From an uncultured virus (IMG/VR IMGVR_UViG_3300000301_000027) (Duplodnaviria; Heunggongvirae; Uroviricota; Caudoviricetes; Crassvirales), in IMG/VR virus record IMGVR_UViG_3300000301_000027: 20,000 nucleotides of DNA. One strand, written 5' to 3'. The position numbers and the translations under genes were made by a program. The notes under the pieces are model-generated. The model was given only the letters and a program-made list of their open reading frames with translations, had not been told where the DNA came from and made no database searches. This document shows, piece after piece, positions 8,479 through 19,072 of this stretch (the stretch's first letter is position 1; the number at the start of each line of letters is the position of its first letter).

Positions 8479-9186
8479 TTAAAAGTTTCTTTGATTTAAT
8501 TGAACATGAGCTTCTAAATTAGAGGGATTATAATCTCTTAAAGCTAATTCTACAGCTCTATTCAATATATTTAAATGTATATTAGAACCTAATTTACAAA
8601 GAGTTTCTTTAGTCTCTCCTTTAATAGATAATCCCATACCTTTATATAATCCAGTTGAAAGATCTTCTAGTATTATAGGTTCTGGTTCTATTAAATAAGT
8701 TACTTCATAGCTAGTAGGTTCTTTACTAGAGATAATATAGATACCATCATTCTTAGTTAATTTAAATACTTTCCTTTCATTAGGTTTTTTAAAAGGATTA
8801 ATAAGATTGACATTTAATTCATCCCATGTAGTAGGAATAACTAAGATAGTTAATGGCCAATTAGGTATTATAACTTGTTCATTAATTGGATACCAGATAT
8901 TATCTGCAGTTTTAAATCTAGCTTGATTATAGCCTCTATATTTAGATAATTCTAATGGATTCAATGTTTCTGTTCTAACAAGATATTCCAAAGCTGTCCT
9001 TATATGTTCTGTACTATCCACAGCTTCATGGTATATATTTTTACCAGAATAAAATTCTTTTACAATTTCATCCTGTGCTTGTGTTAGAAACAAAGATATT
9101 TCATAAGAATTCAACTCAGGAGCAGACTTATCAGAATTATTATAATGCAAATTAAAACTTTCTATCCATTCTTTAGAATTATTCAT
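8479..9186 (-). CDS. Head-tail ring protein, crAss gene-74-like (235 aa)
   Basis: Motifs F...YNN..SAP.LN.YEISLFLTQAQ.EIVK, Y...P.PIILEDL and C.L...IH..IL.RAVELA typical of Crassvirales ring proteins (recall); synteny. Confidence 0.75.
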   Translation of the reverse strand: MNNSKEWIESFNLHYNNSDKSAPELNSYEISLFLTQAQDEIVKEFYSGKNIYHEAVDSTEHIRTALEYLVRTETLNPLELSKYRGYNQARFKTADNIWYPINEQVIIPNWPLTILVIPTTWDELNVNLINPFKKPNERKVFKLTKNDGIYIISSKEPTSYEVTYLIEPEPIILEDLSTGLYKGMGLSIKGETKETLCKLGSNIHLNILNRAVELALRDYNPSNLEAHVQLNQRNF

Positions 9187-10113: not shown

Positions 10114-11049
10114 TTAAACAGCTCTATAAATTAAACTCATAGTTCTCTCAGCATCTAAAATAAATGCTCCTAAAGAAGCCATCTTATGGATCACACAAGA
10201 GTCTTCATCAAATGACATATTATTGTTATTCATTTGGCCTGTGAAAGGATTCCTGAAGCCCCATTGATATCCTCTATGTTCCTCCTCACCTTTAATCTTA
10301 GCAATTTGGATATTTGGCTCTTCTGTTGAACCAATATAAAGAATATCATATCTGTAAGATTCAGTAACACCTCCATCAGGATGTGGAACTTTATTTCTTA
10401 CTGGATCATCATAGAATGGATCTACTTCCAAGAATACTTCTACATTATTAGGAGCTCTATAACCAACAAATTGGAATCCAGCAGTTAAAGCAGTCTGATG
10501 TAAATTAGAATTAGCTTTAGAGATAATTCCAGGTTGATCAGAACCTCTCAAATATGAGAATGCAGACCATCCTGATACTACATCTAGAACAGCTTTATTA
10601 AATTGGATTGCTCCATATTCACCAGTTCTCAAAATAAATTTCCTATCTTTCATATCAAGTTTAGATACAGATAGATCTACTAGAGCTTTCTCTAATAGTT
10701 TAAGATCAAATTTATTATAGTAAACAACATTACCATAACTCATTTGTTCCCTGATACCTGCACCCATCTTGATGACATTACCAGATTTACCAAAGTCATA
10801 ATATTCACCATGTTCATCTCTATTAGAGACTCCATACATCAATACATGAGATTTATCTTTAGCAAATTGTTCCTCTAATGTCCAGTCTACTTGATGAATC
10901 CACATTTTATTAACTTGAAGTTTACCTTCCTTAGTCATTACAGGAATACCAGTTTCAAGTTTTCTATTCATCTTATTCCCAGCTACCTTAGTAGAAATTC
11001 TAATAGTAGAGAATTCATTTCTCATAGAGAATGGAGTTGCATATCTTAC
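10114..11049 (-). CDS. Major capsid protein, exon 2 (311 aa + stop; begins VRYATPFSMRNEFSTIRIS)
   Basis: The reading frame extends 8 codons upstream of the ORF-track Met to the intron 3' splice site. Joined in frame to exon 1 it gives a 497-aa crAss-type MCP. Confidence 0.9.
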   Translation of the reverse strand, partial: VRYATPFSMRNEFSTIRISTKVAGNKMNRKLETGIPVMTKEGKLQVNKMWIHQVDWTLEEQFAKDKSHVLMYGVSNRDEHGEYYDFGKSGNVIKMGAGIREQMSYGNVVYYNKFDLKLLEKALVDLSVSKLDMKDRKFILRTGEYGAIQFNKAVLDVVSGWSAFSYLRGSDQPGIISKANSNLHQTALTAGFQFVGYRAPNNVEVFLEVDPFYDDPVRNKVPHPDGGVTESYRYDILYIGSTEEPNIQIAKIKGEEEHRGYQWGFRNPFTGQMNNNNMSFDEDSCVIHKMASLGAFILDAERTMSLIYRAV

Positions 11050-12206
11050 CTAGTTTTTACTTTCTCAGCTCTTTATCTGAGAAACCTCTTTTAGAGGCAA
11101 CTTGGAGTACATTTTCTTCCTTAGCATTACCTATTAGGAAGTGGACACTCTTGGGAAAATTATACTGTCAAATAATTAACATGGTATCTTTTAAATAAAG
11201 AATATATAGTTCCTTTATCTACTTCAAAATGTTTAGAAATCTCTTTAACAGATTTTCCATCATTAAACATTTTAATAGCATTTAAACATTCTTCTGAAGT
11301 CATTTTAAAATGTTTCTTTCCTTTATTTATACCATGCAATGAAAGGATTTTTAAAAGAGTTGCATAACTACAATGATATTTAGATTCTATTTCAGATAAT
11401 TTTAATTCTCCATCTAAATAATCATTTATTAAATTATTTTGTGCTTCTTGATCTTTAAGAATAGAGTATCTAATTCTAAGATCAACACCTCTTTTTTCTA
11501 AGAATTCTTTCAAACCTGTTGGACTACAATCATATCTTTTAGATAATTCTCTTAAAGAATATCCAATTTCATAATCCCTTTTAAGTTCTAAAAATTCTTG
11601 ATGATTTATGTTAAGATTATTATTTCTTATCTTAACATTCATAGAATGTAAAATCTTTAAAATAGTAGCTTTATCTACATTATATAATTTAGAGATTTTA
11701 TATCCACTAAATCCTGATAAATAAAGCTCTTTTATTTCATCATATTGATTATCAGAAATTATCTTTCTTCTACCATCTCCTCCTATAGTAGAATTATATC
11801 CATTGTTAAATGTATCATATTTAGCAATATAAAACATTTCTCTACTATCTAAGTCTTTAAATTCACATTCTTCTAATATTTCTACTGTAAAATTATCTGT
11901 ACCATATTTTTTAATTGCATTATGAAAATGACAATTATCTTTTTTAAATTGATGTTGTTTCCATCTAAATTCTACAGTATATCTAGTTTGTCCAATATAG
12001 GACTTCCCATTTACCTTATTGGTAATTTTATAAATATATCCTTTCATTAGATAATTATTTTATCCTCATTTCCTACTCTCTACACTGTGCATTCTAGTTA
12101 GGAATGCATTAGCTAGGTATTGTACCTTAATAGGTAGTTCCACCTAATTTGCCCATTTTTTAACTATCCATTACTGGAATAGGGTGACATAAAATATTCT
12201 CAGTCT
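11050..12206 (-). mobile_element. Group I self-splicing intron (IA-like, 1157 nt) interrupting the MCP gene
   Basis: 5' exon ends in U (GGUGAU, 12212-12207) and pairs with IGS GUCACC (12188-12183), with a U.G wobble at the splice site. P10 AUAUUUUAU (12197-12189) pairs with 3' exon GUAAGAUAU (11049-11041). Terminal omega-G at 11050. P2 with GUAA tetraloop; P3 UGGGCA/UGUCCA; P4 UAGGU/ACCUA; P7 GAGUA/UACUC; P8 CUUCCU/AGGAAG; P9 and P9.1 hairpins. Confidence 0.93.
11160..12047 (-). CDS. Intron-encoded GIY-YIG homing endonuclease with four C-terminal HTH-like repeats (295 aa)
   Basis: N-terminal GYIYKITNKVNGKSYIGQT, conserved R (FRWKQH), E (REMFYI) and N (GYN) motifs of the GIY-YIG fold. Lies wholly inside the intron. 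Confidence 0.92.
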   Translation of the reverse strand: MKGYIYKITNKVNGKSYIGQTRYTVEFRWKQHQFKKDNCHFHNAIKKYGTDNFTVEILEECEFKDLDSREMFYIAKYDTFNNGYNSTIGGDGRRKIISDNQYDEIKELYLSGFSGYKISKLYNVDKATILKILHSMNVKIRNNNLNINHQEFLELKRDYEIGYSLRELSKRYDCSPTGLKEFLEKRGVDLRIRYSILKDQEAQNNLINDYLDGELKLSEIESKYHCSYATLLKILSLHGINKGKKHFKMTSEECLNAIKMFNDGKSVKEISKHFEVDKGTIYSLFKRYHVNYLTV

Positions 12207-12764
12207 ATCACCAACTTTTCTACTCATTTCTCTTTCTACAGGAGCATATTCATCAGAGAATCTCTTACCTCCAATAAGCTCTTCACCAGGACAACCATTT
12301 TGTTTATTCTTACCTGTAAGTTCTACTTTATAAACATAATAGGTACCTTCTACTCTAGGTTCTTCAAGAATTCTAAAAGGATATTCTTCATTCTTTTCAC
12401 CTACAATGATATAACCATCAAAGAAATAGTTTTCAGGAAATACTAGTTCAATAGTAGATCCACCAATACCTACATTAAAGTCATTAGCTTCAACAACAGC
12501 ACCATTATATCTAGCTTCAACCAAAGCAATATTTCTCCTAGAAGAACCAATAAGTTCCCAAGTATAATCATCATCTGTTTCAAAATATTTAACAGGGAAT
12601 CTCATCAAATTTCTTTCAAGAGACATACCTCTATTTGCATAGAGTAATTTGATCATAAGATTTGAAGCTTTTTGAGGGGCACTCTGAAAAATAGAAGCCA
12701 AAGCATTATCTGAAACCAAACCATTCAAGGTCTTGGCTTCTCTCATTACATACTTTCCAATCAT
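12207..12764 (-). CDS. Major capsid protein, exon 1 (186 codons; ends ...EREMSRKVGD)
   Basis: SDN.L.SIFQ.APQKA.NLM..LL and W.LIGSSRRNI.LVEAR motifs of crAss-like MCPs (recall). The last 11 residues of the ORF-track protein are intron read-through. Confidence 0.9.
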
Positions 12765-13935: not shown

Positions 13936-14271
13936 TTATAGTTTACTCAAATGTTTTAATGATTCTACTAATGATTTTAATTCATTAATAGTTTTAGCAT
14001 TATCTTCACAAATCTTTTTAGTTTCTTCTAATTGTACTTGTAAAGATCTATTCTCTCTTTCTAAGACAATTATTCTACCATTTAATTCAATAACTTGTTT
14101 AGATCTTTCTTCTATTTCTTTTAGAAGAGTGTTATTTGTATTTAAATAGTAATCACTAGACTCTTTAATAATTTCAAAAGATTCTTTTTTTCTTTTGTAT
14201 TTGTTGGTCACAAAATAAGTTATTGTGTTGGTTACTAGAGTTACTACAGCCATTATAATTCCCTCATTCAT
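13936..14271 (-). CDS. Small protein with N-terminal hydrophobic helix and coiled coil (holin-like or membrane-anchored), 111 aa
   Basis: GIIMAVVTLVTNTITYFVT followed by basic KYKRKK and a heptad-rich C-terminus; ATGA overlap with the portal stop. Confidence 0.5.
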   Translation of the reverse strand: MNEGIIMAVVTLVTNTITYFVTNKYKRKKESFEIIKESSDYYLNTNNTLLKEIEERSKQVIELNGRIIVLERENRSLQVQLEETKKICEDNAKTINELKSLVESLKHLSKL

Positions 14272-16703
14272 GTCTTCTTGGTTTTAGTATCATATTTATT
14301 TTTATTTTCTCTAGCAACTTCTAAGCTCTTATCTGCTTTGTATTTTTCAGTCTGAGCTTTAGTTTCAACTTCCTTCTCTTTAATTCTAAGTTCTTCTCTC
14401 TTTAAAGAGTTAGTTTCTATAGCATTCACCTCTTCTAATGCCAATTTATTCATTTCTACTACATCAGGAATACTATTATCATTAATATCTTTATCTTCAG
14501 AATATCCTAAAGCTGATATAGTAGCCACTTGAATTTTAGTTTGATTATCTTGATCAATTTTATATTTTTCAAGATCTAATTTAGCTTGTTCTATTTGAGC
14601 TTGTTGTTCTAATTGAGATTGAGCTAATTCTTGTTCAGCTCGTTGTTGCTGTTGTTGTCTTTCTTGAATATCTGCTTCATCTATTTCAATAGTTCTTTGT
14701 ACTTGAGCTAAAGATTTACTATTATAAATCTTAATAATAGATGAGAAAGATAAAGCTTGGTTCTGTAAAGCTGCTTGTGCTAATGAATCTAATTTTTGTG
14801 TTAATTCTAAAGTGTTCATAGAATTATCAACCACTAAACCATAATCACATTCAGCAAATTCATCTCCATCAATAGTGACAAGTTCTCTAGAAAAGTCATC
14901 TAAAATAAAATTATATTTTTTACTAGAACCTCTCATTGCTATTTTAGCAGTTTCTAATAAAGCTTCTAGTACTCTTTTCTTAACATCATCATGAATTAAG
15001 AATAATCTTTCTGTAATATAAGTACTTTGTCTAACAGATGTTTGTACACCACCAACAGTTTCTGAAGCTTGTACTGCTCCTTCTCTTTGATCTGTAATGC
15101 CTACTATCTTAGACATCTCTTGTTTAATAAATTCTAATAAAGCTATATGCTGTTGTATATAATTACCTGTCTCAGCATCTATAACTCCAGAACTATTATT
15201 ATTAAGAGAACCTGCTAATTTACCAGTAGCAGCACCTACATTACCTTCTTTAAAAGAGTCTACTACAGCAATACCATTAACATAAGCAAAATGCATCCAT
15301 TTATCTATCTCCCAATCATCAGGAATAAGAGCAAAATCTAATTTAACAATTTTACCCATGTTTCTAGCAATAGCTTTATTTAATCTATCATGTACTGCAT
15401 CATACATGTATTGAAATGGTTTCATCATATCTACTAATGAATAGACTCTAGATTCATTAAGATTATAGACAGAACCAATAATACCAAAATGGCATCTGGA
15501 TGGATTAGACATTCTATTGTATTGGATCTTTCTAGGTCTGATATTAATATAAATATCTCTACCTATTTTAGTTCCTTCCCATGCTTCATTAATCCATTGT
15601 TTTTCAGCTTCCTCACCAAGAGCTTCATTTACTTTATAATCTTCAGGATAATAGTCATAGTAAGGTTCTCCTGTTTCTAAGTCATATTTCTTAACTTTCA
15701 AAACAAGTCTTTTACTTTTCCAGAATATTCTTAATACTCTAATATTACCCAAATTATCATAATAGTTAGAAGAAGGTGTAGTTGTTCCAGATTGAAAAGC
15801 AAAATCTAAATCAATATTATTATCATCATAATAAGAGAATCTTGGAACAAATAGTTTAGTATCATCATATAAATTTAATCCTTCAGATGAATCAGCAAAA
15901 GGAGAATATTCTTCTAACTTTTTAACATCATTATCAGAAAGATCATCATAATAATAATCTAATATTTTTCCAGGAGCCCAAAAGTCATCTAAAATTATTA
16001 AATCTGCATCTTCTATTTTATTAGAATATCCATTTTTAAATACATGAACTTTTCTAGGATTAAGTCTTTCTACTATAGGCTCTCCTGATACAATATCACA
16101 TTGGTATAATTCTTCACCAACAATCATTGCATCCATGAAACCATCATTAAACTTAACATCTAGTTTTAATTCTTTATAATAATGATTTAATAATTGATTT
16201 GCTCTTATCTCTCTTATATCTGACCAATCATATCTAAAAGAATCTGAAAGAGATTTTAATTCTTTATCCAAGATAGATTCATCTTGTGATGCTTCTTCTA
16301 GGAGGGAAGATAAAGCTTCTGAAAGCTCTTTTCTTTTTTTAATTTCAAGTTCTGAAATAGCATCAGGGTTAGTAATTATTACTTTGAATTCATATCTTCT
16401 TTCTTTTTCTTCTCCAGCTAATACATTCAATTTACTATTCATAATAGGATAGTGTTGAATATTACTAGGAATATAAGAGGCTTTGATATTGTCAGGATTT
16501 AGAATTAACTTTAAATCATCTAGATGAAGCTTTCCATTAATTAAATCATAATTGATTTTTTTATTAATAAAAGCTTTTCTAACAACAGAGTCAAAGAAGT
16601 AGGATCTTTTATCAGCCCAATCAACAACTCTTTTCCTCCATTCTTTACCTTTCTTAGAAAAAGGTAATTTCTGGTTAGGAAATCCACTAATAGTTAATTC
16701 CAT
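14268..16703 (-). CDS. Portal protein (811 aa)
   Basis: crAss-type motifs (P.QKLP..KK..EW, IQHYPI..SKL..L.GEE, WINEAWEGTKIG, GIT.QREG...SETVGGV) and a Q-rich C-terminal coiled coil; directly downstream of TerL. Confidence 0.9.
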   Translation of the reverse strand: MELTISGFPNQKLPFSKKGKEWRKRVVDWADKRSYFFDSVVRKAFINKKINYDLINGKLHLDDLKLILNPDNIKASYIPSNIQHYPIMNSKLNVLAGEEKERRYEFKVIITNPDAISELEIKKRKELSEALSSLLEEASQDESILDKELKSLSDSFRYDWSDIREIRANQLLNHYYKELKLDVKFNDGFMDAMIVGEELYQCDIVSGEPIVERLNPRKVHVFKNGYSNKIEDADLIILDDFWAPGKILDYYYDDLSDNDVKKLEEYSPFADSSEGLNLYDDTKLFVPRFSYYDDNNIDLDFAFQSGTTTPSSNYYDNLGNIRVLRIFWKSKRLVLKVKKYDLETGEPYYDYYPEDYKVNEALGEEAEKQWINEAWEGTKIGRDIYINIRPRKIQYNRMSNPSRCHFGIIGSVYNLNESRVYSLVDMMKPFQYMYDAVHDRLNKAIARNMGKIVKLDFALIPDDWEIDKWMHFAYVNGIAVVDSFKEGNVGAATGKLAGSLNNNSSGVIDAETGNYIQQHIALLEFIKQEMSKIVGITDQREGAVQASETVGGVQTSVRQSTYITERLFLIHDDVKKRVLEALLETAKIAMRGSSKKYNFILDDFSRELVTIDGDEFAECDYGLVVDNSMNTLELTQKLDSLAQAALQNQALSFSSIIKIYNSKSLAQVQRTIEIDEADIQERQQQQQRAEQELAQSQLEQQAQIEQAKLDLEKYKIDQDNQTKIQVATISALGYSEDKDINDNSIPDVVEMNKLALEEVNAIETNSLKREELRIKEKEVETKAQTEKYKADKSLEVARENKNKYDTKTKKT

Positions 16704-16795: not shown

Positions 16796-19072
16796 TTACC
16801 AAAAAGAATTATCAGCAAAATTACTAGTAAAGAAGGGATCATTACCCAGATAATTTTTTCTAGTTTTTTTACCAATAGATGTTCCTTCTCCTGGAAGATA
16901 TTTCATATTATTTTCTCTAATAATCATCAACATACCTAAAGCAGAAACTCTATCTGCATTTATATCAGGATTCCACATTATAAGTTCTTTTATCAGAGCT
17001 ATTCCTCTTAATCTTTGTAGATTCTTAACAGTAGTAATCTTTTCTACTTCATCACCATGTTCATCTAATTCAACTTTAGTTTGTTTTACAGGCATTAATA
17101 GCCAGTCTCTAATCAATCTTCTAGCATAAGCATTTACTTGTTTTCCTGAATTAGTACCTTTAGACTTATTACCATACATAGAAGATTTTACTAATTCTAC
17201 ATCTCTTAAAATATCTGGAGTGTCACATAGTAAATGAGTACAATGATGATTAGAAAAATATGTAAATAAACCTTTTTTATCATTTTCATAATTTAATGAG
17301 GCATTGTAGAAAATAGCTAATCTTCTACATATTTCATAAAAATCATCTGCAAAATCAGGTCTACCTGTATATTCAGCTACAATCCTATCAGTGAACATGT
17401 CAAGGATAAATATACTGGGAAGAGATACAGTTGTACTATGATCATCATCAATAGGGTCAATACCACCAACATACCTATAACTAGGCACCTTTCCATTAAC
17501 TTCTTTAGGCAATTCATATATTTCTAATGCTCCTTTATGTCTATTATCTTTTAAGGGAAAATCTCTAATAGGATCATCATCTGTTGGTCTAAAAGAAATA
17601 TTTCCTTCAGGATCTTGATATAGTTCTCCAACTAAATGACCTCTATGCCATTCTATTTTATTTGATTCTATATAATTAAGATGATCTGTTAAATCAGCTA
17701 CAGGAAATAATGTGCCATCTCTTCTCATTACAGCTTCCTGAATAGACATAGGATGTTCAGCTATTCTCTGTGCTATAGTAGAAGGATCTGTAGAATTATA
17801 TTTAATAAATACTCTTTCTTTGACTTCCTCTAAAACAGCTTTAATAACATCTGAATTTCCATTTTTATCATAACATCCTTTTCTATTCATATACTCTCCT
17901 ATAAAGAGAATGGATTTAGAACCTCCTGATGTTCCTTTATCAAACATATTAGGAACTCCATAAACATTATATCCTAAGGGATTATAAATCATTTCTAAAG
18001 CACCACTAAAATCTGATCCTTCTGTACCTCCAGTTCCTAAAGCAATTGCTTGTCCAAAAGAATATCCACCTTCTTCTACATTAGGTCTACTAGTATTCCA
18101 TGCATCTATAAAACCAGGAAACATACCAAACTCCTCCCATATCATTAAATGAGATCTCTTTCCCCTGGCTTTATCAGAATCATTATTTAGTGATAATCCT
18201 ATAATTTCATTTCTAGTTCCTAAAGCTACATCTTTATTTCTAGTATCCTTAAATCCCATAATCCAATGCATTTCTTGATTAGAAGATTTTAATCTACTAG
18301 ATGGATATTGTGTATTTAAAGCTAAGAAATCTGTCATAGCTAATATCTTATTCAGAGTACCATCTTTTCTTAAATACTCTGTATTACTAGCTACAACAAC
18401 AGATTTTACTTTTTCACATACTTCTTTGTTTTCTCCTAAGATAAAATTTCTAGTAGCCATAGATGCTACTTTAAAAGATTTTCCTTTTCCTCTGGCTGCT
18501 ATTAAAGCTGAATGTTGACCTCCTTTGTATTCATTATACATTCCTCCATATCTAGCTTGATTTATATAATGAAAGAATATATAATCTCCATCATAGATAT
18601 CAGGAAAATCAACAACCCTATTTACAGCATTAGTATCTTTAATATTAGCTGTTGCTCTTTCTATTGGAGAATAGTTTAAATAAAAATAATGATAACCAGT
18701 AATCCATTCACCATCTGATGGTCTTTTACATCCATACCAACATTTAAGAACTTCTTTTCTTAACCATTTCATATATGGACTATTTGGATTACCATTAGGT
18801 CTTAAATTAGTATATTTACCATGTTTTTTAAAAGCTAATGCAGGTTTCCTAAAATAATCCATATTCTCTAATATGTGAGGCTTAACTACATTAACTATAA
18901 TTTTACCTTCTGAATCTCTTTCTAGATCTTTAGCATAAGGTCTATCTGGAGATATCATCCATCTTATAAATGGATAATTATTTAAATAGTCTAATAGTTC
19001 TGTTCTTTCTTCTTTAGCTAATGTTTCTAGAAACTCAGGAGTTAATTCTGTATTTACAGTATTAGTTACCAT
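16796..19072 (-). CDS. terL: Terminase large subunit (758 aa)
   Basis: Walker A (AARGKGKS), Walker B (LMIWEE), coupling motif (GTGG), RNase H-like nuclease motifs (GGIDP, YEND, N.DRVSAL) and the crAss-type ITGYHYFYLNY motif. Confidence 0.95.
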   Translation of the reverse strand: MVTNTVNTELTPEFLETLAKEERTELLDYLNNYPFIRWMISPDRPYAKDLERDSEGKIIVNVVKPHILENMDYFRKPALAFKKHGKYTNLRPNGNPNSPYMKWLRKEVLKCWYGCKRPSDGEWITGYHYFYLNYSPIERATANIKDTNAVNRVVDFPDIYDGDYIFFHYINQARYGGMYNEYKGGQHSALIAARGKGKSFKVASMATRNFILGENKEVCEKVKSVVVASNTEYLRKDGTLNKILAMTDFLALNTQYPSSRLKSSNQEMHWIMGFKDTRNKDVALGTRNEIIGLSLNNDSDKARGKRSHLMIWEEFGMFPGFIDAWNTSRPNVEEGGYSFGQAIALGTGGTEGSDFSGALEMIYNPLGYNVYGVPNMFDKGTSGGSKSILFIGEYMNRKGCYDKNGNSDVIKAVLEEVKERVFIKYNSTDPSTIAQRIAEHPMSIQEAVMRRDGTLFPVADLTDHLNYIESNKIEWHRGHLVGELYQDPEGNISFRPTDDDPIRDFPLKDNRHKGALEIYELPKEVNGKVPSYRYVGGIDPIDDDHSTTVSLPSIFILDMFTDRIVAEYTGRPDFADDFYEICRRLAIFYNASLNYENDKKGLFTYFSNHHCTHLLCDTPDILRDVELVKSSMYGNKSKGTNSGKQVNAYARRLIRDWLLMPVKQTKVELDEHGDEVEKITTVKNLQRLRGIALIKELIMWNPDINADRVSALGMLMIIRENNMKYLPGEGTSIGKKTRKNYLGNDPFFTSNFADNSFW

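Follow-up and report, generated by a model that had tools for sequence, protein, structure and literature searches.

The window, by which we mean the whole 20,000-nucleotide (nt) stretch of the uncultured Crassvirales record IMGVR_UViG_3300000301_000027 (IMG/VR) that was analyzed, carries all of its long open reading frames (ORFs) on the minus strand, and these constitute a crAss-type structural block (Table 1). Within this block the gene for the major capsid protein (MCP) is present as two halves, separated by an insert which harbors an ORF of its own and which we interpret as a mobile group I intron. The nearest classified relatives of this phage are members of the Steigviridae, with the MCP sharing 59% identity with that of crAss001 and the TerL protein approximately 50% identity with those of IAS virus and DAC15.

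The ORF at 12764..12171 (minus) matches positions 4-190 of the 496 positions of the Pfam Crass_capsid profile (PF23898; e-value: 1.8e-58), while that at 11025..10114 (minus) matches positions 199-494 (e-value: 1.3e-114), and major head protein is likewise the PHROG assignment of both (family 11589). Eight residues, VRYATPFS, lie ahead of the ATG of the second ORF, and these are exactly the eight PF23898 positions missing between the two matches. Joining the halves at 12207^11049 yields a stop-free sequence of 1,494 nt (497 codons), the product of which shares 58-59% identity with crAss001 gp32 and the cr106_1 MCP and aligns with them gap-free at the junction, SRKVGD|VRY in the window standing opposite SRKVGDVRF and SRKVGDIRF, respectively. 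An earlier note on this sequence had proposed that the MCP gene is split by an intron, that its halves join in frame at this point into a protein of 497 amino acids and that intron-less crAss MCPs could be checked for colinearity across RKVGD|VRY. The alignments bear out the join and the colinearity, and the split is confirmed by the exact insert relative to intron-less alleles and by the matches to group I family models described below.

A scan of IMG/VR with exon 2 identified 47 loci (given L numbers here), and in eight of these the MCP shares 93-100% identity with the joined protein. The insert is absent at this site (site 186) in five of these near-identical loci (L003, L004, L005, L008 and L009), while the same insert is present at 98-99% nucleotide identity in L006, L007 and L027. 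Blastn alignments against the insert-free loci break at gene positions 558/1716, which correspond to 12207/11049, with zero overlap, and because no letters are shared at the break the boundaries of the insert (12206..11050, 1,157 nt) are exact. The base preceding it is U and its last base is G (11050). Furthermore, 83-95% of the sampled words of a 2,651-nt stretch were present in 14 DNA runs from eight studies (pig, bovine and other gut), one of which is possibly the window's own source. As the intron makes up 44% of this stretch, these runs contain it too. The intron-bearing allele circulates. Compared with GenBank phages by blastn, the intron gave no matches other than short stretches of endonuclease genes.

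Table 1. Features of the window. R1 and R2 are the covariance models described in the text; paired strands are given 5′ strand first.
Feature	Position	Strand	Description
TerL-like ORF	19072..16796	minus	758 amino acids
Portal-sized ORF	16703..14268	minus	
MCP exon 1	12207..12764	minus	186 codons, ending ...GGU GAU; blastn to intron-less alleles stops exactly at 12207
Proposed group I intron	11050..12206	minus	1,157 nt, AGAC... to ...CUAG; exact versus L003/L004/L005/L008/L009; R2 and R1 match its ends
MCP exon 2	10114..11049	minus	311 codons plus stop, starting GUA AGA UAU; colinear gap-free alignment
Ring protein	9186..8479	minus	
Predicted homing endonuclease ORF	11160..12047	minus	295 amino acids; N-terminal GIY-YIG domain, then several helix-turn-helix modules
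Internal guide	12183..12197	minus	P10 strand AUAUUUUAU (12197-12189), then P1 strand GUCACC (12188-12183)
P1	12212-12207 with 12188-12183	minus	GGUGAU/GUCACC, 6 base pairs (bp), U.G at splice site; read from sequence
P10	12197-12189 with 11049-11041	minus	AUAUUUUAU/GUAAGAUAU, 9 bp including two G.U; read from sequence
P2 hairpin	12182-12164	minus	CUAUuCCA-GUAA-UGGAUAG, GNRA-type loop; R2 alignment
P3	12155-12151 with 11146-11142	minus	UGGGC/GUCCA
P4	12147-12142 with 12118-12113	minus	UUAGGU/ACCUAG, encloses P5; R2 alignment
P5	12136-12132 with 12127-12123	minus	UACCU-AUUA-AGGUA, 5 bp; hand reading
P6 hairpin	12108-12088	minus	UGCAUUC-CUAACUA-GAAUGCA; R2 alignment
P7	12080-12074 with 11109-11104	minus	G(A)GAGUA, bulged A/UACUCC; presumed guanosine-binding helix
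P7.1	12072-12069 with 11158-11155	minus	GAAA/UUUC; encloses the endonuclease ORF
P7.1 3′ strand, conserved segment, P3 3′ strand	11142..11158	minus	UUUC, CCAAGAGU, GUCCA; R1 alignment
P8 hairpin	11141-11116	minus	CUUCCU...AGGAAG; R1 alignment
J8/7 and P7 3′ strand	11104..11115	minus	AAAAUG and UACUCC
P9	11098-11084	minus	GCCUCU-AAA-AGAGGU, 6 bp; hand reading
P9.1	11081-11064	minus	CUCAG-AUAAAGAG-CUGAG
Possible P9.0	11102-11099 with 11055-11052	minus	AGUU/AACU; inferred only
Terminal G	11050	minus	follows AACU, A; from the exact boundary

The elements of a group I ribozyme can be located at the two ends of the insert. A 6-bp P1 with a U.G pair at the 5′ splice site, a 9-bp P10 aligning the 3′ exon, a terminal G and a complete P3/P4/P6/P7/P8/P9 core had all been described in the earlier note; the guide pairings and the G fall at the exact boundaries, and the core helices were all found, together with P2, P5 and P9.1, and covary across the family. 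A P3 pairing that was drawn initially (UGGGcAAA/UUUuCCCA) was rejected, as family comparison gives P3 as UGGGC/GUCCA and places UUUC in P7.1. One pair of P4 is A-U in the window where the family has C-G, which represents a compensatory change.

Relatives of this RNA were sought in IMG/VR with the pattern AAAATGTACTC, 15-45 nt, ATAAAGAG. The two motifs returned 81 loci, approximately 15 of which lack flanking stems, look like chance matches and were left out (L054, L068, L069, L071, L073, L082, L086, L089, L096, L101, L114, L119, L126, L128 and L130). The remaining loci represent an obvious family, including ORF-less members of about 270-330 nt, and share one order of elements. From the 5′ end this comprises the P10/P1 guide, P2, the 5′ strand of P3, AAAAUCGGUGAA (J3/4 and P4), P5, AAUACCGAG (P4′), P6, UGUA, the 5′ strand of P7 with one bulged base, a G, a 4-bp P7.1 and UGAA; these are followed by an inner hairpin or ORF, AAUAUAAU, P7.1′, CCAAGAGU, P3′, P8, AAAAUG, P7′, P9, P9.1 with the loop AUAAAGAG, a short tail and the terminal G. 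The J8/7-P7′ segment AAAAUGUACUC is invariant in 40/40 sequences of alignment A1, this motif being itself the search pattern.

Two covariance models were trained on the family without the window, L006, L007 and the site-186 intron of L027. R1, for the 3′ half, was built from 40 sequences and has 132 positions and 21 pairs; R2, for the 5′ half, was built from 32 sequences and has 137 positions and 22 pairs. The diverged introns at the same site in L058, L063 and L098/L099 were used to train both, as was a further MCP intron at site 285. RNAalifold on a plain MAFFT alignment of the 3′ halves found only P9.1, with P8 and P9 misaligned; the structure of the 3′ halves was then supplied by hand and the sequences were realigned by the model. 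In the 20-kb window each model gives a single match on the minus strand, R2 at 12197-12064 (83.6 bits; e-value: 3.1e-16) and R1 at 11168-11045 (90.3 bits; e-value: 9.1e-18), in the correct order and at both ends of the insert. The 81 sources searched with the two models gave 85 and 95 matches. Neither model matches the intron-less loci L003, L008, L001 and L002, nor L005, which contains only an intron of another type, nor crAss001, cr106_1 or the TerL regions of DAC15 and cr111_1.

The predicted helices are supported by covariation throughout the family. The 3′ half, with 69 distinct rows, has 89.2% paired cells versus 61.9% after shuffling, and 20/21 of its pairs change on both sides; in the 5′ half, with 63 distinct rows, the values are 90.8% versus 61.1% and 20/22 pairs. 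Neither the fraction of cells paired nor the covariation score within the halves is reached by any of 500 shuffles, and sliding the partner by one to three columns reduces pairing to 27-50%. Changes on both sides affect all six pairs of P2 and all seven of P6 (96.8% of cells paired); P5 also covaries. P9.1 is 100% paired with 7/7 pairs covarying, and P9 99.1% paired with 6/7. All seven pairs of P8 likewise change on both sides, its lower pairing (69.6% of cells) being due to the variable length of the inner part of the helix.

The helices that connect the two halves were assessed separately, by assigning to every 3′ match the 5′ match that lies closest upstream, which gave 63 distinct introns, and by shuffling the partners 500 times; the resulting tables keep a few mismatched halves from multi-intron loci. 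Standard pairs account for 89.6% of 299 cells in P3 (shuffled: 76.2%, maximum 80.3%), 98.1% of 372 cells in P7 (88.9%, maximum 93.0%) and 93.5% of 246 cells in P7.1 (54.8%, maximum 65.0%), and none of the shuffles reaches these values. As P3, P7 and P7.1 exceed all 500 shuffles, the group I topology with its P3/P7 pseudoknot is established for this family. P3 occurs in forms such as UGGGC/GUCCA, CAGAC/GUCUG, CGACC/GGUUG and UGAGC/GCUCA, P7 as GAGAGUA/UACUCC, ACGAGUA/UACUCU, ACGCAUA/UAUGCU and GAGACUA/UAGUCC, and P7.1 in about 30 distinct 4-bp combinations. The 5′ strand of P7 begins with G or A, a bulged A or C, and then a G which pairs with C in all 62 introns lettered at both positions. In the Tetrahymena intron the guanosine-binding G-C pair of P7 similarly lies next to a bulged base, and by this analogy P7 is presumed to be the guanosine-binding helix.

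The guide is matched to its own exons, with which it changes together in the diverged introns at the same site. P1 is GGAGAU/GUCUCC in L063 and L099, with P10 being UUGUAU/AUACGA in the former and AAUCUUAU/GUAAGAUU in the latter, while L058 has GGUGGU/GCCACC and CUUAU/AUAAG; the corresponding pairings of the window at site 186 are given in Table 1. At site 285 of L027 and L009, P1 is GCUGGU/GCCAGC and P10 CUCUAAU/AUUAGAG. A terminal G is present in all of the same-site introns and in the other family introns with fixable ends. The family and the window intron together thus display the U preceding the 5′ splice site, the U.G pair in P1, the omega G, P10, a P3-P9 core with pseudoknot, the P4-P5-P6 domain and covariation, which are the features by which group I introns are recognized.

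The ORF within the insert, a feature on which the earlier note was silent although its intron reading stands, is predicted from its domains to encode a GIY-YIG homing endonuclease, and as such the intron would be a mobile one. Its product matches the GIY-YIG domain over the full profile (PF01541; positions 1-78 of 78; e-value: 5.2e-9), as well as HTH_7 (e-value: 1.9e-11), HTH_38 and HTH_23, and its best PHROG is the homing endonuclease family 7168 (e-value: 7.7e-31). It thus combines the catalytic domain and DNA-binding modules of intron-encoded, I-TevI-like GIY-YIG endonucleases, and would presumably be capable of DNA cleavage. The ORF is enclosed by P7.1 and flanked by the two ribozyme halves, 159 nt before and 110 nt after it. 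Among the 63 family introns, 32 contain an insert of at least 500 nt between the P7.1 strands, in the same place as in the window, while 26 contain none, and in L127 a truncated GIY-YIG remnant is retained. This presence, absence and decay of the ORF across the family represents the usual cycle of homing endonuclease gain and loss.

Extra helices between the 5′ strand of P7 and P3′ are the position of P7.1/P7.2 in subgroup IA, which is itself split into IA1, IA2 and IA3, and in the window this position is occupied by the 4-bp P7.1 around an inner hairpin or ORF. One study names P7.1/P7.2 among the features separating the group I classes (PMC3984707), and in another they are described as additional pairings in an intron resembling subgroup IA (PMC2248736). 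Taken together, the boundaries, the P1/P10 guide, the P3/P7 core and the covarying family support the group I assignment made previously, and we estimate a probability of about 92% that the insert represents a mobile intron of group I with a subgroup-IA-like layout, in which additional helices lie between P7 and P3′.

In the proposed mechanism, the guide (12197-12183) in the late transcript would form P1 with the six terminal bases of exon 1 and P10 with the nine initial bases of exon 2. The pseudoknotted P3/P7 core would bind free guanosine, which would attack after U12207, and the freed exon 1 would in turn attack after the terminal G11050, joining the exons as ...GGUGAU|GUAAGA... The spliced mRNA would encode the full 497-amino acid capsid protein, while on unspliced RNA translation would run into a stop after 11 intron codons and give only a 197-amino acid fragment. 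The GIY-YIG enzyme presumably cuts intron-less capsid alleles of co-infecting relatives, the repair of which would copy the intron in. Such homing would explain the presence and absence of the intron among near-identical phages. We infer splicing on four grounds, namely that the ribozyme is intact, that the guide fits, that the allele persists and that a capsid protein is needed.

Several results weigh against this interpretation. The general group I model of Rfam, RF00028, does not recognize the intron: a search of the whole window at the gathering score found nothing, a search of 10950-12350 at an e-value of up to 10 gave seven chance-level matches, none of them to RF00028, and the 3′ 136 nt alone gave no match, while ORF-less family members were likewise missed by RF00028 at an e-value of up to 1 in a 21-kb search. 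The invariance of J8/7-P7′ and of the L9.1 loop arises by construction, as both are fixed in the search pattern, and the within-half alignments were fitted to the model structure, which favors pairing. R2 flags three P5 pairs of the window as non-standard and R1 aligns its P9 poorly, P5 and P9 being hand readings. A further helix closing the ORF beyond P7.1 is no improvement on shuffled sequence, its duplex energy being -13.4 kcal/mol versus an average of -11.8 for the shuffles, 27% of which do equally well. Finally, among the four RNA-library runs examined (X15, X17, X18 and X20, contigs throughout), X15 and X20 yield contigs that run unspliced across the exon-intron junctions. X17 and X18 each yield one contig joining exactly 11049^12207 with no intron coverage, but these are compatible with intron-less alleles or DNA carry-over. 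The single-nucleotide polymorphisms of X17 agree with the intron-bearing L007 at 11/14 positions and with L004 and L009, which are free of the site-186 intron, at 9/14, indicating mosaic haplotypes. Given the intron-less DNA alleles, the DNA in RNA libraries and the mosaic exon haplotypes, the RNA contigs do not decide splicing.

The result with RF00028 was examined further with shorter stretches, for which the search filters are laxer. A short 5′ stretch of the window (12210-12040) scores 18.4 bits (e-value: 0.0086; model positions 1-153), far from the gathering score of 50, and the ORF-less L053 scores 29.4 bits (e-value: 7.4e-6). These alignments assign P1-P7 and P3′ as in the family reading, with the same P1, P2, P3, P4, P5, P6 and P7 5′ strand. 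Canonical-type introns (GUUCAACGACUA ... GAAGAUAUAGUCU) in the same loci score 35-81 bits with RF00028, and 56-81 in the 21-kb search. The window intron does not reach the gathering score, a threshold which is an annotation criterion and not a defining property of the ribozyme class, and the miss reflects the insensitivity of the model to this subgroup and not the absence of a ribozyme. The covariance-model check suggested in the earlier note therefore came out divided, with nothing from RF00028 at the gathering score and clear matches from R2 and R1, and the lack of such a hit is a weak refutation test for this intron subgroup.

Three other explanations of the locus were weighed. The insert might be a decayed, non-splicing intron, which would leave the capsid gene broken and the phage genome of this contig defective, in line with the ambiguous RNA-library contigs, with RF00028 scores far below the gathering score and with the deviation of the window P5 and P9 from the family consensus alignment. 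Yet every family helix is intact in the window, differences such as that in P4 (A-U for C-G) are compensatory, P1 and P10 match the phage's own exons and the endonuclease ORF is open and of full length. Furthermore, the same intron occurs at 98-99% identity in three other IMG/VR contigs, most of the stretch is present in the 14 DNA runs of eight studies, and a capsid-less phage would not persist, making decay unlikely.

We consider it less probable still that the gene was split by a free-standing cassette with a homing endonuclease and that two polypeptides, each translated separately, make up the capsid. While both halves are open ORFs, the second with an ATG at 11025, and two capsid coding sequences are listed in GenBank for the related phage cr111_1, a start at 11025 would forfeit eight conserved residues, and 11 foreign residues would be appended to exon 1. 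The non-coding sequences on either side of the cassette moreover form a conserved, covarying ribozyme with guide pairing to both exon edges, and the ORF-less versions that interrupt genes in 26/63 family members are unexplained by a split at the protein level. An assembly chimera, which the metagenomic type of the sequence and the coexistence of intron-less and intron-bearing alleles might suggest, is the least credible of these explanations, given that the identical insert and boundaries recur in the independent contigs L006, L007 and L027 and that contigs from X15 and X20 span each exon-intron junction. An intein, a group II intron and translational bypass were rejected on the basis of the stops in the exon frame, the lack of a reverse transcriptase and the length of 1,157 nt.

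The mobile group I intron favored here has counterparts among known systems. Group I introns with endonuclease genes have been reported in MCP genes of Delta- and Zeta-group crAss-like phages, including a Zeta-group MCP ORF split into five fragments, with the introns recognized via their endonuclease domains (Yutin et al. 2021, PMC7886860), and this finding is repeated in a 2023 review (PMC10136315). The window intron agrees with those of Yutin et al. in the gene, the phage order and the carriage of endonuclease genes, and differs from them in that the RNA itself is modelled here, the site is bracketed by intron-less alleles and the phage is nearest to the Steigviridae; the supplements of that paper, which lie outside this comparison, may list this site or family. 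In the capsid gene of mycobacteriophage LittleE, splicing of an intron that is "most likely group I" was demonstrated by reverse transcription PCR and protein sequencing, and a capsid intron in lactococcal phage Tuc2009 is cited in the same paper (Pope et al. 2013, PMC3706429). As in LittleE, an endonuclease-carrying intron interrupts the major capsid gene, exon 1 ends in U and the intron in G, while phage and host are unrelated and the endonuclease is different, the likeness being one of described features. The rarity that had been ascribed to an intron at this location was consequently overstated, given the published crAss-like MCP introns (PMC7886860) and the splicing shown for LittleE (PMC3706429).

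As such, the capsid intron of this pig-gut crAss-like phage is real, but its arrangement has already been published in kind. What is added here is modest, namely a Steigviridae-like phage, bracketing intron-less alleles and a covariation-supported RNA family that is missed by Rfam. A description of this RNA family as such was not found in the literature searched, which was a limited collection excluding supplements.

The td intron of phage T4 belongs to subgroup IA2 and has P7.1/P7.2-type helices; it interrupts a gene of nucleotide metabolism, homes into intron-less alleles and carries in its P6 region the ORF for I-TevI, a GIY-YIG endonuclease with a C-terminal helix-turn-helix part. The window intron resembles it in being a phage group I intron with a P7.1-type helix and a GIY-YIG and helix-turn-helix endonuclease. 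It differs in that its ORF lies within P7.1, between P7 and P3′, its host gene is structural, and core elements are different (J6/7-P7 UGUAGAGAGUA, J8/7-P7′ AAAAUGUACUCC).

The family may represent a coherent, undescribed group I subgroup, characterized by a nested P7.1 that houses the endonuclease, J8/7-P7′ AAAAUGUACUC and the P9.1 loop AUAAAGAG, and missed by the general model of Rfam. In this tentative and rather doubtful proposal the subgroup would be common to Crassvirales and phages of Clostridioides, Clostridium and Staphylococcus, and would have colonized crAss-type capsid genes more than any other, with as many as three copies per 3-kb locus and tandem arrays with micro-exons. Were it true, its spread would trace the flow of genes among phages whose hosts are unrelated, and homing would amount to competition between alleles of co-infecting crAss phages.

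For annotation, gene callers would give two capsid fragments and a stray endonuclease at such a locus, as the GenBank record of cr111_1 does for a related intron. Rfam-based pipelines also miss the intron, and with a model specific to the family, the calls of capsid, terminase and tail genes could be repaired in many gut phage genomes. If the intron is spliced as proposed, the most abundant virion protein of this phage would depend on RNA self-splicing, and the efficiency of splicing could gate capsid production, as was conjectured in the earlier note. The coexistence of near-identical phages with and without the intron furthermore represents a natural system for studies of intron homing in gut phages.

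Additional introns are found in the MCP genes of the near-identical loci, at two positions that are uninterrupted in the window. L009 and L027 (3117-4000) contain a second MCP intron of the same RNA family at residue 284/285. It has the layout of the window intron, with the ORF likewise beginning at intron position 160 and similar J6/7-P7 and J8/7-P7′ segments, and its GIY-YIG ORF extends through P3′, P8 and P7′. In the 54-kb contig of L027 (G001), the two in the MCP gene are the only family introns. An intron of a different, canonical-looking type is located at residue 451/452 in L005, L006, L007 and L027. Its length is 857 nt in three of these loci, while L006 has an ORF-less version of 348 nt.

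Elsewhere in the family, L066, L070, L077 and L094 carry a coding insert in the P5 region and not within P7.1, and the family thus has at least two ORF insertion points. In a TerL-like gene (L112:1117-2099, IMG/VR) four ORF-less family ribozymes with units of 228-237 nt lie back to back, the model matches being only 1, 15 and 43 nt apart, which represents either micro-exons or a nested arrangement. The capsid region of L109 (IMG/VR; 273-1854) is heavily interrupted, the family being represented within 3 kb by three 5′ and two 3′ halves, alongside one canonical RF00028 intron (56.2 bits).

Members of the family are also present in GenBank, unannotated or as gene fragments, in the crAss phages cr111_1 and cr128_1 and in phiCD211, PT1-1 and phiCP39-O. 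In cr111_1 (MT774387.1, 10981-13396; L135), two "major capsid protein" coding sequences are annotated with a "hypothetical protein" between them, and both family models match in this gap (113.6 and 119.4 bits), which identifies it, on sequence grounds, as a predicted, unannotated intron of the window's family in a human-gut member of the Steigviridae. Beyond the Crassvirales, the family occurs in phages of Clostridioides (phiCD211 of C. difficile, L137), Staphylococcus (PT1-1, L136) and Clostridium (phiCP39-O of C. perfringens, L138). The intron of phiCD211 is located between the "minor tail protein" and "tape measure" coding sequences, directly upstream of an annotated Rfam Intron_gpI, such that two introns of different type adjoin.

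The TerL gene of DAC15 (L133, 9429-12761), DAC17 and cr111_1 (L134) is a single coding sequence for approximately 1,100 amino acids. Compared with the 758-amino acid TerL of the window, it contains an in-frame insertion of roughly 1 kb, part of which is named "DarB-like antirestriction" in RefSeq. The DAC15 and cr111_1 insertions were rejected as family introns, being in frame within one coding sequence and matched by neither family model. The insertions in DAC15, DAC17 and cr111_1 are probably inteins.

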